A stretch of DNA of 64,000 bases, taken from NCBI GenBank assembly GCA_963744145.1, contig CAVUSO010000001.1, positions 6,240,001 to 6,304,000 on the forward strand, given 5' to 3'. The notes under the pieces were generated by a model. That model made no database searches. It was not told where the DNA came from and saw nothing but the letters and a program-made list of their open reading frames with translations. The DNA is from an uncultured cyanobacterium. Its GTDB lineage: Bacteria > Cyanobacteriota > Cyanobacteriia > Cyanobacteriales > CAWUOF01. The stretch's first letter is position 1. Each line of letters begins with the position of its first letter. Of the stretch, positions 8,511 to 63,286 are shown in pieces. The position numbers and the translations under genes are program-made.

Positions 8511-10012
8511 TTGATACTCTCAGGTCTAAAGACACTGAGATTCTTGAATAGTCCAGAGTCTGAACTTCAAAGGCGCGTACAAGACACCTCTACTGATTTC
8601 ACTTAGGTCTAGCCCAAGATTCACCGCTACTTTTCTTAAAATATTAGCTGCACCGTTGCAATCGGCATTGATCTTTATGCCTTTAGAACTGACATACAAG
8701 CCTCGCTTCACTCTTTTTCCTGATGCTGTCCATTCTTCGGGTTTTTCACCATAAGTTGGGATGGGGTCAGCGTCTAAAAAACTAGCTTTACTTGTATAGC
8801 TTTCTTCAGTTTCTTCAAACTTAATGTCGTACAACTCACATAGTTGTTGGATTCTTGTTTTGAGTCTAGCTGTAGATATTTGGACAAAGTTTTGATTAGT
8901 TTGCTTACCTAACTCAATGCCATCTTTTTGTCCTTTATTCCAACCAAATACTAAAGTTCCGATGCCATTATTTAAACAGTAATTTATCACTATTCGAGCC
9001 GCTTTGTTGATAGCGTCCCTCATCTGTCTATTCCGTTTCTCAGTCATTGCTGCCAAACGATTAGACCAGAACCCTTTAGGCTTATTAGCTTTGAGTTTGG
9101 CTACTTGTTTGTTATACCATTGATTGACCGATTTTAGATGTTTGCCATCAATTATGAAGCTTGTGCCCACATTACTAACGGCTGTTAGCCAGTTGTTCAA
9201 ACCGTGGTCTAACCCTAAGCATTTAGCTGTGTCTAGAACAGGTTTTTCGACTAAGTTTGGGTAGACAAACTCTGCATAAAAACATCCATTTCTTGGGAGG
9301 ATTCTGACTTCTCTAAGAGACTCAAAATCTAAGTTAGTTGGCCTTGGTAGGAAAAACTCTTTTATGCCAAACCAAGCGTTGATTTGTAACCCTAAAGGAA
9401 ATCTAATCTTTCCATCAATTAACCTTAGCGACCGTTTGGGATAGGCAATTAATTGATAGCCACCAGGTTTCCGATAATTGGGCAAGTTGGGTTTAGTTTC
9501 GAGTTTACCACTCAGCCACAACTCCCTTAACTTGGCAAAGGAGCTAATGGACTCACCTACGGCATTACAAGTTTGTGTTGCGGCATCGGATGGTAGGGCA
9601 GAAAAATGTCTATTTTTAGTTTGTATTAGGTGTGCCCCTATCTCAAACTTCGTTACAAATCTGCGAGTTTTGAACCAGATTTGACGAGCGTAATAGGTAG
9701 CACAATTGTGTAGCTTATTGGACTCTGAGCAAATAAATTCAAGAATTGCTTTTAACTCTGAACCAGCATCAATTAAATTTTGCTGAACACCTAACGGTAC
9801 TTGGGGCTTCTTTTCCGTTTTCTTTCTTTTGACCATTTCATCACTTTCATTTCTCTATATACATCATAGCTTAATGTCGAGAAAAAAGTAAGTCTTTTCT
9901 ACAAAAGCAATGGTAAGATTAAGAAATATTCTCTGGTGGTTAAAACCACTTGGGTCGTTTCCCTCTCAGGTCTAAAGAACCTGAGCTTCCCACAAACCCA
10001 TGTTTTTTTGTG
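8511..10012 (-). mobile_element. Non-autonomous IS200/IS605-family element (tnpB only)
   Basis: Near-identical subterminal hairpins TCTCAGGTCTAAAGACACTGAGA (8518-8540) and CTCAGGTCTAAAGAACCTGAG (9965-9985); right end TCAA on the minus strand at 8511; no tnpA; left boundary approximate. Confidence 0.8.
8526..9836 (-). CDS. tnpB: RNA-guided endonuclease TnpB
   Basis: LGLDHGLNN (RuvC-I), EESYTSKASFLD, INADCNGAANI (RuvC-III). Confidence 0.93.
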   Translation of the reverse strand: MVKRKKTEKKPQVPLGVQQNLIDAGSELKAILEFICSESNKLHNCATYYARQIWFKTRRFVTKFEIGAHLIQTKNRHFSALPSDAATQTCNAVGESISSFAKLRELWLSGKLETKPNLPNYRKPGGYQLIAYPKRSLRLIDGKIRFPLGLQINAWFGIKEFFLPRPTNLDFESLREVRILPRNGCFYAEFVYPNLVEKPVLDTAKCLGLDHGLNNWLTAVSNVGTSFIIDGKHLKSVNQWYNKQVAKLKANKPKGFWSNRLAAMTEKRNRQMRDAINKAARIVINYCLNNGIGTLVFGWNKGQKDGIELGKQTNQNFVQISTARLKTRIQQLCELYDIKFEETEESYTSKASFLDADPIPTYGEKPEEWTASGKRVKRGLYVSSKGIKINADCNGAANILRKVAVNLGLDLSEISRGVLYAPLKFRLWTIQESQCL

Positions 10013-16634: not shown

Positions 16635-17230
16635 CTTCTACTTCTTACATAGCTCGCACAAATAATGCCTTTATCCTCACCGAAACAGTGCAAGTGGCGC
16701 AACTAATGCACCAAGGAGCTACCCTTGATGAAATTCGCCGACAAGTCATAGTAGAAGACTTATTTCAATTGCGATCGCTAACTTCCCGTCGTCGGGTATT
16801 GAACACAGTCCTACAACGGTTGCAAAAAGTAGATTCTAGTTACATTAAATTGCTAGCCATCAGCAATATTGATATCCGTCGCTTGACCAACTTGTTGTTA
16901 ATTTTGCGATCGGATCGTCTCCTCAGATAACTAATTGATGAAGTATTGTTAGATAAGCTTAAGTGCTTTGTTTTTACAGTTAATTTAGCTGACTTAAGAA
17001 GCTTCTTCGAGATGAAACGCGAACAAAGCCCAACAGTAGCAAAGTGGTCGAATTCAACCTATCAAAAAACTGCAAGTAATACAGTATTAATACTGGTAAA
17101 TGTCCATTTACTTCACCCCATCAAACCTCGTGGGAATTATGAAATTCGACCTGTTCCTATTCCAGAGGCGCTACGTCAACAACTCTTACTTGATGGAGCA
17201 GAACTTTACCTACGTTTGATGCTCAACTAA
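16631..17230 (+). pseudogene. brxA: BREX BrxA (DUF1819), in-frame stop at 16928-16930
   Basis: ORFs 16631-16930 and 16946-17230 share a frame; EDLFQLRSLTS, FFEMKREQSPTVAKWSNSTYQK resemble BrxA. Confidence 0.75.
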
Positions 17231-17500
17231 CCCCTAGTGCTTTGAATGTTGCATCGACAGGATCGGTGTAGAAAGAGGTTTGGAACTTGACAAACAGTTC
17301 AGGAGGTACGGTAGTGTTTTACGGACACCCTGTACATCTCGCTGCTTCAGGTTATTTCCCAGACGAAAATAGCGATCGATCGCATCGCCAAAGCTACGTT
17401 TCCGCATTTCCCGCAGCCATTCAGCTAGATAATCCACAATAAAACCATATTGTTTAGTAAAGTTTTGCGGACTAAATTTAGAAATTTCCCAACCAGGAAT
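17223..17500 (-). pseudogene. brxL: BREX BrxL (Lon-like) fragments: middle segment joined to the extreme C-terminus
   Basis: IPGWEISKFSPQNFTKQYGFIVDYLAEWLREMRKRSFGDAIDRYFRLGNNLKQRDV, then in another frame TVPPELFVKFQTSFYTDPVDATFKALGVS*. Confidence 0.8.
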
Positions 17501-17502
17501 AT

Positions 17503-17850
17503 CGCATAAGCTCGTTGTCCAGGGTTAATAAATTGGGCTTTTAAACTATTGGGAAGTGACCCCTGTAACGACTTTTCAAAATGAGTGATCAGAAGTTGCA
17601 CGAATAACTTCTGCAAGCTGGGGGTAGAGTCAGCAAAACCTGTATGTTCCTGTACTATTTGCCAGAAATCTTGGGGATTAACAAAACTTTCAATATTTTT
17701 CCAAAGTAGATTATCTGATTCTAATAAACCCTTTAGCAAAACTTGCCGAATCATTGCACCTGCATCGGGTACTTTTAACCCACTTAGAACTGATAACATT
17801 GCCAAAATTAACCCCCGTTCGTCGGTATCTGAGGGTAAAGCCAATTTCTC
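17503..17850 (-). pseudogene. pglZ: BREX PglZ internal fragment
   Basis: LILAMLSVL...FWQIVQEHTGFADSTPSLQKLFVQLLITHF resembles the N-terminal half of BREX-1 PglZ; position directly before brxL fits. Confidence 0.55.
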
Positions 17851-18562
17851 CCCGATCGCCATCAAACCACAGGTCTGTAGCATGGGGAATACAGTTTAAA
17901 ATTGCCAATTTGACGACTTGATACCCCGCTCGCATTATTCCTTGATGGTTGATGGCTTCGATCGCTTCTTTTTGAAACCAAGTTTGTAAATCAGCCAGAC
18001 GAATCCGTTCATCTAAACAATCATAAAAAGCTTCCCAACGACGGGAAGGATTGATGGTTTGTTTGGCTTTTTGTTCGCGCTGGTTAGATGGTAACCAAGC
18101 CCGACCTGCGCCATAGTAAGCTATTACTGGAAACCAAATTTTTGACCCATTCCGATCTGCTTCAAACAAATTACTGATAATATCTAAAGCTGTTTTTGCC
18201 TCCTTATTTATGGTTCTTGAACCTAGCTGAGGTATTTGTCGTAACCAATTAATATTTTGCTCATTACCAAGGCTACCTGTAACATTTATTTGCACTGGTT
18301 TACATTCAATAAATTGGATGCGATCGCCTGATTGAATAGCTTTTAAATGGATTTCTTGGGGTAAAATATTTCGCCGACTGTTGGTTAAGGTAGAATCTGG
18401 TGCGTTGACTAACCAAATTCCAGCCGCGATCGCGAGAGCATCAAGAATGGTGGTTTTCCCTGTACCATTATCACCAACTAATATGGTTAGTTGCGGATGC
18501 AGATTAAGGGTTAATTCGGAAAATTTTTTGAAATTTTTGATCCTAATTTGGTCAATTTGCAT
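17845..18562 (-). pseudogene. AAA/ABC-type ATPase (AAA_15/21, defence-associated), C-terminally truncated
   Basis: MQIDQIRIKNFKKF, Walker A GDNGTGKTT, PVIAYYGAGR; ends before the signature/Walker B and runs into pglZ DNA. Confidence 0.75.
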
Positions 18563-19320
18563 CTGATTATTTTTAATTTATATAACGTTACAGCGGATTA
18601 CCCGTTGATCAAGTACAGTCAGTTATCTCGTTTGGTTGGACGGGTTGATGATGGCGATCGATTTGGATCAGAATTAATTGGTAAACCCGCCCCTCGCCAA
18701 CCCACCTTGTCATTGCGAGCGATCGCGAAGCAATCTCCAGTAGATGACTTGACTACACTACGTGATCTTTGCTATTATATGATAATTTTTGAATAGAAGT
18801 ATTGATGCTGTAAAATCACTTCATAAAGCATATCAATATCCTGATAAAATTATTAATGAAACGATGTGGAATGAAATTGATTTAGAAAATCTATCAACAG
18901 ATACTATAGAGTTCATTTCTAAAGTTACTAATATAGTATATAATAAACTAGATAATTTTACTAGATAATAATGCTTTATTAAAAGTCAAGATGTTAATAA
19001 AGCATTACGAAATATTTTTGGAAATACTATTGATGCTGATTTTAATACTGTAAGAGAGGGGTTATTCTCATATACAGCCTATTCCAGGTTTATGAAGTAT
19101 AGCAGTGTTGTCTGTAAGATCAGATGGGTTATGTCTCGACTACGCCTTGTGTTGAGCGTAGTCGAAACATCGACACAAGAGTTCATTAAGGTGATCTGTG
19201 GGGCAGGGCGGGTTTATCAATACCTCGACTTCGCTCGGCACAAGGGTTATTTGTGTGTGGCAAATTCATCGGTGAACCCGCCCCCACCCACAGATCAATC
19301 CTATCAATGTATCTTCATCA

Positions 19321-19447
19321 TCAATTGGTATTATCATCTTTAAAAGTATTGAATAGGCGAAGTTCTTGACCATCGTAGGAACCAGGGAAAAACATCACCA
19401 ATGGTATGGCGCTCGAGAACTGGGTGTAAATTATTGAGGATAGTATG
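19321..19447 (-). pseudogene. brxB: BREX BrxB C-terminal fragment
   Basis: HTILNNLHPVLE, then (frameshift) IPLVMFFPGSYDGQELRLFNTFKDDN. Confidence 0.75.
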
Positions 19448-19455
19448 CTATCCGC

Positions 19456-21039
19456 TAAGTAGTCGGACAAAAGTAATAGGTACTGTATTAACTTTTGTAA
19501 AACGTATGGGTCAAGCAATAAGCTGGACAAAGTCATCGAAAAATTAGTCCAATCTGGGGAAGATTGGCCAAAGAAGTGGCTGGACAATGGGAGCAAAAAA
19601 TTAGACTTATTTTGGTAATTAAGGGGATAAGTGAGGTCGATTTTAGCTTCAAAAAAAACACCCTGATTGTGAAATAATTATAGAGCTAACTTAAAAGTTT
19701 GAAGAAAATGTCATCTCCTCCTTTGAGAATATTTTTAACATCTGCGGAAAATCAAACCTTATGGGAATTAAATAGAGCCGAGGGAGTTCCACTAAGAACA
19801 AGAGATCGGGCTGCGACCTTGAGATTATCATCAATGGGATGGAAAGTGGAACAGATCGGCAAGTATCTGAACTGGTCAATTAAGACAGTGAGAGCCACAA
19901 TACATCGTTGGGAAAAACAGGGATTAGCAGGATTATGGGATGCGCCTCGTCCGGGCAGGAAAAGAAAATGGAGTCAGGCAGATTTGGCAGAAATTGAAAA
20001 AAAACTAGAGACAGAGGAACGAGCTTATAATAGTCGTCAGTTAGTGAAATATCTAGCCCAGGAAAGGCAAGTAAAACTGAGCCAAAGACAGTTGCGTCGA
20101 ATCCTCAAAAAAAACTATCGGTGGAAAAGAACGAGAACATCTCTAAAAGGAAAGCAAGACCAGGAAAAAAGAGCAACTAAAAGAAATGATTTAGAGATGT
20201 TGGAATTCGCGGCAGCCGCGGGTGAAATATGTTTAAAATATTTGGATGAATCAGGATTTAGCCTGTGGGCTGAACCTGTATATACCTGGGGGAAAATCGG
20301 CCAACAGAAACAGATCAAACAGCCTAAAAAGAAAGGGAAAAGATTAAATATATGTGGATTTTTGGCCGTGGGAGAAAGCTTTGAATATGGATTAAGTTTT
20401 AAGAGTTTTGACAGTAAGAATTATATCAAATTAATGGATTGGCAAGCCGCGCAAGCGGAAACTAGATTGAAAGAAACGGGCAAAATAACTGTAATTGTCC
20501 AAGACCAATATTCCGTTCACGTAAGTAAATTGACGAAGAGCAACTATGATCAATGGGAAAAACAAGGATTATATATATTCCTATTATCCAGTTACTCTCC
20601 CGAATTAAATCTGATTGAAACGGAGTGGGAAAGAATCAAAGAAGATGAATTAGCTGGTCAAATGTTTGAGAATGAATATGAATTAACCATCGCGGTAAGA
20701 GCAGCAATCGAAGCTCGTCAAACTAGTAAGGGCTTAGAAGTAAAAAGATTTAGATTTGGTGGTCAGCCTAGCCAGGATGAACAAAAATCCTAATCGGGTT
20801 TATTCTAGTTCTAGTCAACCGGAAAAATTCCATTAATTGTTTAATGAGAGGCTGAGGCAAAACTGACCATATTTATAGTTAATAGAAAATCTGGAAATGC
20901 AGTTTTCTTACTCTCTAGTGAAACCTATTCAGTTGGACGGAGGGAATACTTTTATATGCTTTTCTCTGGTAAATTTGTGGGTCAAATTTACTCTTAAATA
21001 AAGTTAACATAGTTAACTTTATTTATGTCCGACTACTTA
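19456..21039 (+). mobile_element. IS630-family insertion sequence
   Basis: Inverted ends TA-AGTAGTCGGACA (19456) and TGTCCGACTACT-TA (21039) with duplicated TA. Confidence 0.9.
19699..20793 (+). CDS. IS630-family transposase
   Basis: HTH GLWDAPRPGRK; DDE LDESGF / VQDQYSVH / YSPELNLIE. Confidence 0.92.
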   Translation: MKKMSSPPLRIFLTSAENQTLWELNRAEGVPLRTRDRAATLRLSSMGWKVEQIGKYLNWSIKTVRATIHRWEKQGLAGLWDAPRPGRKRKWSQADLAEIEKKLETEERAYNSRQLVKYLAQERQVKLSQRQLRRILKKNYRWKRTRTSLKGKQDQEKRATKRNDLEMLEFAAAAGEICLKYLDESGFSLWAEPVYTWGKIGQQKQIKQPKKKGKRLNICGFLAVGESFEYGLSFKSFDSKNYIKLMDWQAAQAETRLKETGKITVIVQDQYSVHVSKLTKSNYDQWEKQGLYIFLLSSYSPELNLIETEWERIKEDELAGQMFENEYELTIAVRAAIEARQTSKGLEVKRFRFGGQPSQDEQKS

Positions 21040-21057
21040 AACACGCCTTCATATCTG

Positions 21058-21290
21058 GACAACCAGTACATAAAGTGTAGAGATGGCCAGTCTCAGTAGG
21101 GGCGTATTGCATACGCCCGCGTATAGCAATACGCCCCTGCTACGTTACTTGGGTCATGGCACCTATGAGTGCTTTCCAGCTTGTAGCTCTGCCGTTCAGT
21201 TTTAAACATTCCTATTTAGCTCAAGAAAGTGAACTGAACTTGACAAGCCTAAGTAACATTGACGAGGAAACAATTACCTGAGTAATCAGA
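21058..21290 (+). ncRNA. IscB-type omegaRNA/HEARO RNA scaffold with no iscB ORF; REP inserted at 21096-21140
   Basis: CCAGTCT...CTACGTTACTTGGG...CATGGCACC...TGCTTTCCAG...CTCTGCC...TTAAACA...GTG...AAGCCTAAGTAACATTGACGAGGAAA...TTACC with complementary stems; 5' end uncertain. Confidence 0.75.
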
Positions 21291-21465
21291 GTTTTAAACG
21301 CCATATCGAAGCGGGTCTGAAAAGAACAATATCGTAGCTTCTATCTGTAATGCCAGCAGATATGCCAGAGAGAATCACCACTTTTGAAGCGCAAAGGTGT
21401 TCTTTTTTTTTGATTAAGGTCGTTTAGTCCATATTTGTCCACATATTCGGCGATTAGAGGTGATC

Positions 21466-21926
21466 CGATCGAAGCAAAGGCCAACTCGCCCCACGCCGGT
21501 CAAAAACACCAGTTGTTCCTGACCACTTAATTTTTTCTGGATCTGGTCAATAACTTGGGCAGGACGCACTAGAGGAAAAATAGTTTTACTCAGAACGGCA
21601 CTACCTTTAGTTGCTTCCAAATCAAATGCTTTCTGCAAAACTCCCCTTCCTTGCAAAATTTTCAGAACGACATAGCAGAGGTTAATCTCCTCTACTTTCA
21701 GATGATGGGAAGAATTTGTCAATTGCGGCATTAAACGAGCAACCTGCTGCTGCACTAATGGCTCATGTTCGGGGTCATAATCAAATATATAAAAGCCAAT
21801 TTCATTACCAATCCCGCGATTGTTAAGTAAGCGAGAGTCTTGTAAAACCAGGAGTAAATTGTCAAGACGTTGCTGAATAGTTGGCGTAGATATATCTTTT
21901 ATGCTGTTGGGTTGATTAAATACCAA
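21466..21926 (-). pseudogene. brxB: BREX BrxB (DUF1788) N-terminal part
   Basis: GIGNEIGFYIFDYDPEHE and LVFLTGVG, then a 1-nt frameshift to ASWPLLRS, interrupted at 21465. Confidence 0.85.
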
Positions 21927-62716: not shown

Positions 62717-63286
62717 TCATCACAACTTTTGTCAGAATCACCCAATTGGGTTACTCATTAGCATGAAGTAGAAACAATATTTCTCACATTATTCTAAGAA
62801 AAAAAACCTGAATCATCTACTTTACATCCGTAAAGTATTTGGGTTAACCACTATCCATGAGGAATGGTGACAATTATACCATGGGGGCTTATTGCCATAA
62901 GCCCCTACCACTAATAAGCCCCTACCACATTTATCCACATGATCAGCAATTAGAGGGGATCAGATTGAACAAAAACTCAAGATTTTGTTTTCTAAGATGC
63001 AGTTATCCCCAAGATTCCTGGGTAACCTCAACTATACAACCTCTCTTCCTTGCTTGTTGAGTGGACAATGACTCGTAATTCTTCTACCAGGGAAAATCAA
63101 CTTTGTCTAGTGTATTTTAAGCTGATAATGTTACAATTTTTAACAAATAAATTTTCATTGGCAACGTAATGACCAAGTCATCCGGTTTAGTTAGTAGAGC
63201 CAATTTATCCATAACTAGCTAAAAGATTAGGTTCTAGCCAACTACATAACTCCCAAAAAATCTTCATTAAACGGAAATTTAGCGCC

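Follow-up and report, generated by a model that had tools for sequence, protein, structure and literature searches.

The stretch of DNA considered here, hereafter the window, comprises 64,000 nucleotides (C1:6240001-6304000) of a 7.70-Mb genome from an uncultured cyanobacterium. It harbors a minus-strand brxB gene that is split by a composite insert of 2,018 bp, of which 436 bp belong to a small element and 1,582 bp to an insertion sequence (IS) plus a duplicated TA (Table 1). PF08747 and PDLC02463 match both halves of brxB in order, over the whole length of the gene. The small element lies antisense to brxB and is composed, from left to right, of an omegaRNA scaffold, a conserved segment of ~105 nt with a terminator-like hairpin, and a far end of ~46 nt. 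The split gene is surrounded by a decayed defense island (window 16946-18562), in which the neighboring BREX genes survive as fragments and a gene for a PtuA-like ATPase is truncated. Elsewhere in the genome, a brxB-like fragment (C1:1704535-1704645), 78% identical to residues 104-140 of the window BrxB N-terminal part, and a HEARO fragment of 92 nt (C1:1707025-1707116) are 2.4 kb apart, and this pair may represent a partial duplicate of the window locus.

Table 1. Features of the interrupted brxB locus, in window coordinates
Feature	Position	Strand	Basis
BrxA fragment	16946-17230	opposite
PglZ fragment	17425-17883		profile 145-262 of 855
PtuA-like ATPase, truncated at about half length	17711-18562
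C-terminal part of interrupted brxB	19321-19448	-	Pfam BrxB profile 87-118; PADLOC BrxB profile 152-182
Predicted native guide (brxB antisense flank), ~16 nt	19431-19446	+	scaffold start and known 5' guide of IscB omegaRNAs
Displaced 5' tip of omegaRNA gene (GC + TATCCGC + TA), GCTATCCGCTA	19447-19457	+	exact match to conserved 5' end of other genomic copies
IS630-family insertion sequence, 1,580 bp	19458-21037	+	inverted repeats, TA duplication, genomic copies
Main omegaRNA (HEARO) scaffold body	21040-21290	+	Rfam match, alignment with 13 other genomic copies
Conserved ~105-nt segment in place of iscB	21296-21399	+	5 genomic copies; missing from full-length elements
Putative terminator-like hairpin (21379-21399), then TTC and nine-T run (21403-21411)	21379-21411	+	consensus scan, MFE fold
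Far end of element (LE in TnpA terms)	21421-21466	+	blastn and alignment of 10 copies; LE/RE assignment after Meers et al.
Right half of target site, GATCG; putative TAM side	21467-21471	+	part of brxB by frame and length
N-terminal part of interrupted brxB	21467-21926	-	Pfam BrxB profile 2-72; PADLOC BrxB profile 4-137

An omegaRNA scaffold with conserved pairings

HEARO RNA was reportedly described by Weinberg and colleagues in Nature in 2009. When the whole window was scanned against Rfam, three matches reached at least the gathering score, two of them tRNAs and the third a HEARO RNA (RF02033, the IscB omegaRNA), which extends over 21045-21277 on the plus strand with 101.1 bits (E 1.3e-19; gathering score, 83 bits) and nominally covers model positions 1-211. 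An initial annotation of the window had recognized an IscB-type omegaRNA at this site from a series of complementary blocks, and both the covariance-model match and the pairings bear out that identification. In agreement with the helices of the model, GTTACTTGGG at 21144 pairs with CCTAAGTAAC at 21248, CTATGAG pairs with CTTGTAG inside GGCA/TGCC, and GTTCAGTT pairs with AACTGAAC; the terminal hairpin, CTGAGTAATCAG, occupies 21278-21289. A further listed contact between loop and tail, TTTCC/GGAAA, is absent from the Rfam structure line, yet it covaries. Of 51 scaffolds gathered from six genomes, 44 could be parsed for this contact (the other 7 were left out), and a perfect 5-nt complement was present in 22 of the 44, including TAGCT:AGCTA (n=11) and TTTCC:GGAAA (n=10), as compared with 8.2 on average and at most 14 under 500 shuffles of the partners. 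The terminal hairpin also covaries across genomes (CUGA/UCAG, CGGA/UCCG, CCCA/UGGG), and a pseudoknot that reads GTC/GAC in one scaffold subfamily of the source genome reads GAC/GTC in another, as had been suspected when CCAGTCT was taken for a compensatory swap. The helices and pseudoknots of the HEARO scaffold are kept by compensatory change.

Scaffold copies also differ by small insertions. The variable hairpin of the window scaffold contains a 17-nt extra stretch (about 21106-21122) found in no other genomic copy. Two other inserts, each of ~24-25 nt and with a TCGACTNCGCTCA core, are located at scaffold helix tips in three and four other genomic copies (the copies concerned are C1:5858739, 2283624, 3192842 and 4137206), and a palindrome sharing this core is present at window 19131-19170. 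We take these small inserts to resemble the very small dispersed repeats of cyanobacteria that land in hairpins.

The source genome as a whole contains 15 HEARO matches, 13 of which score at least the cut-off, while another reaches 80.6 bits and the last is a fragment of 31 bits. Intact iscB follows four of the 14 full-length matches, iscB that is frameshifted, interrupted or reduced to a remnant follows another four, and the remaining six are ORF-less. The four intact frames, which encode IscB proteins of 430, 430, 430 and 456-461 aa, each lie directly after a HEARO copy, and the expectation that IscB would be encoded elsewhere in the genome was thus correct; the scaffolds of three intact loci of the same subfamily are 85.5-92.8% identical to that of the window over aligned positions. 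At the window scaffold itself, the reported absence of a nuclease gene holds: among the ORFs of the window, no RRXRR ORF follows the scaffold, the genome's 12 PF14239 matches all lie away from it, tblastn with the genome's own IscB proteins gave no match in its vicinity at E<=1e-3, and the adjacent downstream iscB ORF (RRXRR/RuvC/HNH) is lacking. The window copy is like HEARO RF02033 in exceeding the gathering score of the covariance model, but unlike it in having no adjacent HNH ORF and a first helix strand that lies 1.58 kb away. The body of the window scaffold scores as well as the four uninterrupted ORF-less copies to which it is compared below (100.8, 90.6, 86.8 and 80.6 bits).

Several other loci of the genome deserve mention. 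In one iscB (C1:4137489-4138912), an insert of about 1.15 kb separates the part for residues 11-56 from that for residues 56-101. The highest-scoring HEARO match in the genome, at C1:402391-402592 (134.5 bits), is of a different ORF-less type, and its element ends at T^ATGA, the ATG of which is the start codon of a gene for an AraC-family regulator. The window also holds a TnpB-like ORF of 436 aa on the minus strand (8526-9836; OrfB_IS605, Cas12f1-like TNB) and therefore carries the other OMEGA nuclease family as well.

An IS630-family element within the omegaRNA gene

The 5' end of the window scaffold is not where the covariance model places it. In uninterrupted copies, model positions 1-8, which form the 5' strand of the outermost helix, are assigned by cmscan to GCUAUCCG with high posterior, whereas in the window copy they are filled with a non-homologous GCCUUCAU that makes three non-canonical pairs; when the genomic copies are aligned, only the window copy ceases to resemble the others to the left of TAAACACG, at its 5' end. 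Its actual 5' strand is located at 19447-19454, 1.58 kb upstream of the body, in a short displaced tip; the GC of this tip takes part in the first helix and supplies the left half of the target site. Because model positions 1-8 are matched to non-homologous bases, the nominally "full-length" match hides a split gene, and the window copy does not possess a contiguous full-length scaffold with its outermost 5' helix strand and adjoining guide.

The intervening DNA has terminal inverted repeats, AGTAGTCGGACA abutting the displaced tip and TGTCCGACTACT at 21026-21037, and is flanked by a target TA (19456-57) that is duplicated at 21038-39. Its transposase ORF (19699-20793) encodes DDE_3 (PF13358, 6.1e-17) and HTH domains, and 10 copies with 99.7-100% identity occur in the genome, all with identical terminal bases including the TA. 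By its DDE_3 domain, inverted repeats and TA duplication, the interrupting element belongs to the IS630 family, and it entered the omegaRNA gene at a TA that lies 9-11 nt from the scaffold start. A second copy of this IS splits an iscB between residues 349 and 350 (C1:3812997-3815863). Two of the 10 copies therefore reside inside ISC elements, whose share of the genome is ~0.2% (P ~2e-4 under uniform insertion and retention); retention in dispensable DNA is the obvious alternative explanation.

An ORF-less element at a HIP1-like site

The window scaffold is part of a 436-bp ORF-less, non-autonomous element of the ISC/IS200-IS605 type. It had been described at first as an orphan scaffold, which is right in that no nuclease gene adjoins it; rather than a bare scaffold, however, it forms part of an ORF-less mini-transposon that is complete down to a far end of its own, and is now disrupted. 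Five such copies exist in the genome (that of the window and those at C1:3491582, 5858739, 2283624 and 3192842). From the would-be iscB start codon onward, they have ~195 bp in common at 92-98% identity, of which only the last ~47 nt match the sequence directly after the iscB stop of full-length copies. In each of the 10 copies compared, the far-end similarity breaks off at one and the same base, and the element ends are common to the five ORF-less and to five full-length or broken copies. As the flanks of the five ORF-less copies are unrelated, the unit multiplied as an ORF-less element. The rival account, in which a full-length IscB element lost its iscB locally and never transposed as an ORF-less unit, draws on the presence of broken iscB copies in the genome. 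It is nevertheless barely credible, given that the five copies, which are not segmental duplications, occupy different sites with identical junctions and the same replacement segment, that this segment is unrelated to iscB, and that the same architecture recurs in other genomes.

The nature of the ~105-nt segment was examined in several ways. Local alignment with four iscB genes detected no similarity (z -1.2 to 0.3 relative to shuffles), and its reading as a remnant of the iscB 5' coding region, prompted by a resemblance seen by eye, was rejected on these values. No Rfam family matches the region 21260-21500, where three eukaryotic snoRNA models at E>5 are noise. Covariation within the segment is weak, with compensatory changes in 2 of 21 pairs and an alifold covariation term of -1.26 kcal/mol, and the z-score of the single-sequence fold is -0.71; we do not claim the segment as a structured RNA on these values. 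It is a conserved sequence module that could serve as a terminator or 3'-end module, as a stability element, or travel as a passenger.

With respect to mobility, subterminal hairpins are discernible by eye only, as CTGGACAACCAG near the omegaRNA-side end and as an imperfect CCATAT...ATATTCGG near the far end. Y1 (TnpA) transposase is available in the genome, with 17 PF01797 matches, all over the cut-off. One Y1 transposase gene lies at C1:6305809-6306159, about 1.8 kb past the end of the window, and near the right edge of the window, positions 62925-62973 match the element's far end at 80%.

The element inserted cleanly into brxB at GC^GATCG, without target duplication. The gap between the conserved brxB blocks is 20 residues in two intact homologues and also 20 in the window (5 + 1 junction codon + 14) when the insert is taken as 19449-21466, and a comparison with the PADLOC profile, counted by hand, gave 14 versus 14. 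A search of 60 relatives recovered no empty site in a close orthologue, only the two distant homologues with 30-34% identity, and the element boundaries therefore rest on protein spacing; a 1-nt ambiguity persists because a C is present on both sides.

Joined to the GC at 19447-48, the GATCG that follows the far end reconstitutes GC^GATCG, a HIP1-like site. HIP1 (GCGATCGC) is present in 7,852 copies in this genome, as compared with about 41 expected from base composition. As a separate observation, GGGATCCC does not occur in the genome, where 41 occurrences would be expected. GC precedes the scaffold in 10/10 copies for which both ends are defined, and the far end is followed by GATCG in 8/10 and by GATCGC in 6/10. 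Of sites that already read GCGA, 38% would be expected to continue to GATCG, giving P = 0.009 for 8 of 10; among 13 far ends collected less strictly, by a regular expression on the presence of GA, 11 carry GATCG (P = 9e-4). A regular expression for the scaffold 5' end yielded 28 matches, 15 of them preceded by GC, with the other 13 being one-mismatch candidates whose status as elements is putative. Window-type ends are also found in four other genomes, where four of six ends are followed by GATCGC and the others by GATCGG or GATCGA.

The target sites of ISC transposons are given as GT^GG, GT^RA and N^ATGA (Kapitonov et al. 2016, PMC4810608), and the term "HIP1" has no occurrence in the main text of that paper. 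As described there, ISC transposons resemble the elements considered here in splitting a short specific site without target duplication, in possessing a conserved 5' terminus (now recognizable as the omegaRNA), in their use of Y1 transposases in trans and in their presence in cyanobacteria; the window family departs from them in its target, GC^GA extended to GC^GATCG(C), and in the lack of iscB. A limited literature search found no published link between HIP1 and these elements, and the HIP1 target and the iscB-replacing cassette may be new to the literature.

Guide, activity and wider family

The guide of IscB omegaRNAs is located at their 5' end, and the transposon RE marks the limit of the HEARO region (Meers et al. 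bioRxiv 10.1101/2023.03.14.532601). According to the same preprint, one motif next to the LE is recognized by both TnpA and IscB, and the donor joint left after excision is cut by IscB, whereupon recombination restores the element. By analogy, the HIP1-type site suggests the TAM side of IscB for the window family. Prior to the arrival of the IS630-family element, transcription across the omegaRNA-side end of the element would have yielded an omegaRNA that could be loaded in trans by IscB from one of the three intact cognate loci, and the complex would have cut the element's own empty site, with the left flank as guide and the HIP1-like right flank as TAM. The later IS630-family insertion into the first helix strand then moved this strand and the guide 1.58 kb away, and also parted the element end from its putative subterminal hairpin. 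The native guide 16-mer matches the genome exactly at its own site only, with no other match at up to one mismatch, as expected for a homing guide and not for a trans-targeting one.

The initial annotation had placed the guide in the right end of the IS630-family element or in the end of the flanking insert. As the IS inserted into the omegaRNA gene, whose native guide now lies 1.58 kb upstream, the IS630 end is not its guide, and the actual tip of the gene is the displaced one listed in Table 1. A functional trans-acting guide RNA that nonetheless used the abutting IS630 right end and aimed IscB at mobile-element DNA would find a few circumstances in its favor. The scaffold body is intact, intact IscB proteins with closely similar scaffolds are encoded elsewhere, a terminator-like site lies downstream, and standalone omegaRNAs are able to work with IscB (Hirano et al. 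PMC9581776); moreover, the IS630 transposase gene upstream is co-oriented with the scaffold, and read-through transcripts carrying the body are therefore conceivable. Even so, we regard such a guide as quite improbable: the 5' strand of the first helix is missing from the contiguous DNA; the 16-mers at the IS630 end match the right ends of IS copies, where they are followed by TA and unrelated flanks and not by GATCG(C); an AT-rich perfect palindrome (20995-21025) separates the transposase gene from the scaffold; and a scan of the plus strand over 20468-21700, itself a weak test, found no promoter-like site.

Judging from the sequence, the window copy most likely no longer works, either as a guide RNA or as a transposon, since its guide and 5' helix strand are detached and its end is parted from the putative hairpin; the intact scaffold body is a point against inactivity. 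IscB elements tend to point the same way as the gene that precedes them (Meers et al. bioRxiv 10.1101/2023.03.14.532601, figure legend), and the element, being antisense to brxB and contrary to this tendency, was perhaps never well expressed. The proposed role as a trans guide for an IscB encoded elsewhere is thus sound insofar as cognate iscB loci exist, but for the split copy a "dead remnant", which the initial annotation had also envisaged, is more likely than an active trans guide. In sum, the feature in the window is very probably the body of an IscB guide RNA gene belonging to a protein-less element in brxB, split by an IS630-family insertion and now most likely inactive.

Mini-transposons of the kind to which this copy belongs are widespread among filamentous cyanobacteria. 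Among 301 genomes sampled from the order, with two candidates scored per genome, six others contain the segment at 79-84% identity, and a HEARO match scoring at least the cut-off lies directly upstream in five of the six loci first fetched from other genomes. An exact 22-mer of the segment had no match in the species-level genome collection, but a BLAST-type search detected it, as did a degenerate core: this 23-nt core identified 28 loci in about 17 assemblies of Oscillatoriales-type genomes, including Microcoleus, Argonema, Limnofasciculus, Coleofasciculaceae, Microcoleaceae and others. A HEARO RNA is present just upstream on the same strand at 25 of the 28 loci, with at least the cut-off score at 18, and no IscB coding sequence follows the segment at any of the 28. 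One of the three core loci without HEARO is at a contig end, one is a chance core match and one is unexplained. The match in 'Saccharicenans' (L112) is a chance match of the 23-mer only. A contig from a Verrucomicrobia-labelled metagenome-assembled genome (MAG) carries the cyanobacterial element and is identical over the printed stretch to an Oscillatoriales MAG contig (L087 and L104), which suggests mis-binning.

The segment loci have two types of end, that of the window (…GATTAGAGG… by CGATCG/CGATCC) and an N^ATGA type. The window family sits inside a gene at a HIP1-like site, and the N^ATGA-type element at C1:402391 at a start codon; in other genomes, ends of the window type are likewise accompanied by a U-rich tract after the hairpin. 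When the six best-scoring HEARO loci were taken from each of five genomes (30 of 111 matches), iscB came next at 10 of them, the segment at 6 and neither at 14. In a FastTree phylogeny of 51 scaffolds, the segment-bearing ones fall in several clades beside iscB-linked ones and are interleaved with these within the source genome, although the tree, built from short sequences and read for its topology, is indicative only.

These distributions could also be read as those of retained standalone omegaRNA genes with a function at the level of the host or the element, for example as extra guides that exploit a resident IscB, with the segment as a dedicated 3' module and the window copy as a casualty of IS630. 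The consistent order of HEARO and segment in the absence of iscB, the interleaving of scaffolds in the tree, the presence of some compensatory changes in the segment, and its conservation at about 80% between genomes although the upstream scaffolds are of different subfamilies all accord with such a retained gene. Its copies, however, stand at unrelated sites, some of them inside genes; their guides match their own flank only, as expected for selfish homing; covariation is weak; and recent horizontal spread could account for the conservation of the segment. This account of the ORF-less elements as a whole is unlikely, and the homing, protein-less mini-transposon remains the preferred reading.

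Standalone omegaRNAs have been published (Altae-Tran et al. 2021, cited by Hirano et al. 2022, PMC9581776), and PATE-like, gene-less derivatives of IS200/IS605 elements are stated to encode omegaRNAs (Meers et al. bioRxiv 10.1101/2023.03.14.532601, discussion). The elements reported here are like these in consisting of a nuclease-less omegaRNA gene with transposon ends, in having several copies, and in relying on a nuclease and a Y1 transposase located elsewhere. As far as the published cases are represented in the papers that cite them, and they may share more, the present elements are unlike them in that iscB has been replaced by the ~105-nt segment and not merely deleted, in their HIP1-like target, and in the split of the window copy by IS630. 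A more far-reaching proposal, which we put forward tentatively and hold to be possible but doubtful, is that filamentous cyanobacteria possess a distinct class of omegaRNA-only mini-transposons whose terminator-bearing cassette has taken the place of iscB and has been swapped between scaffold lineages, whereby they would keep in step with the resident IscB that they parasitize, with one branch, to which the window family belongs, inserting at the HIP1 palindrome (GC^GATCGC), also its putative TAM.

The window locus itself matters little, as a broken copy of an already described kind of element, except as an example of how a covariance-model match can mask a split gene. Its relatives are of broader interest. 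ORF-less omegaRNA genes exceed iscB-linked ones, at 20 of the 30 best loci in the five genomes, with 6 of 14 in the source genome, and, where they are in the majority, most guides therefore depend on nucleases in trans. The iscB-replacing cassette offers a concrete handle on the 3' end or the stability of standalone omegaRNAs. Finally, the end-family that inserts at HIP1-like sites hints at an IscB whose TAM would be of the GATCG type and at a connection of HIP1 with a mobile element; if true, the long-unexplained HIP1 repeat would be tied to an RNA-guided mobile element.
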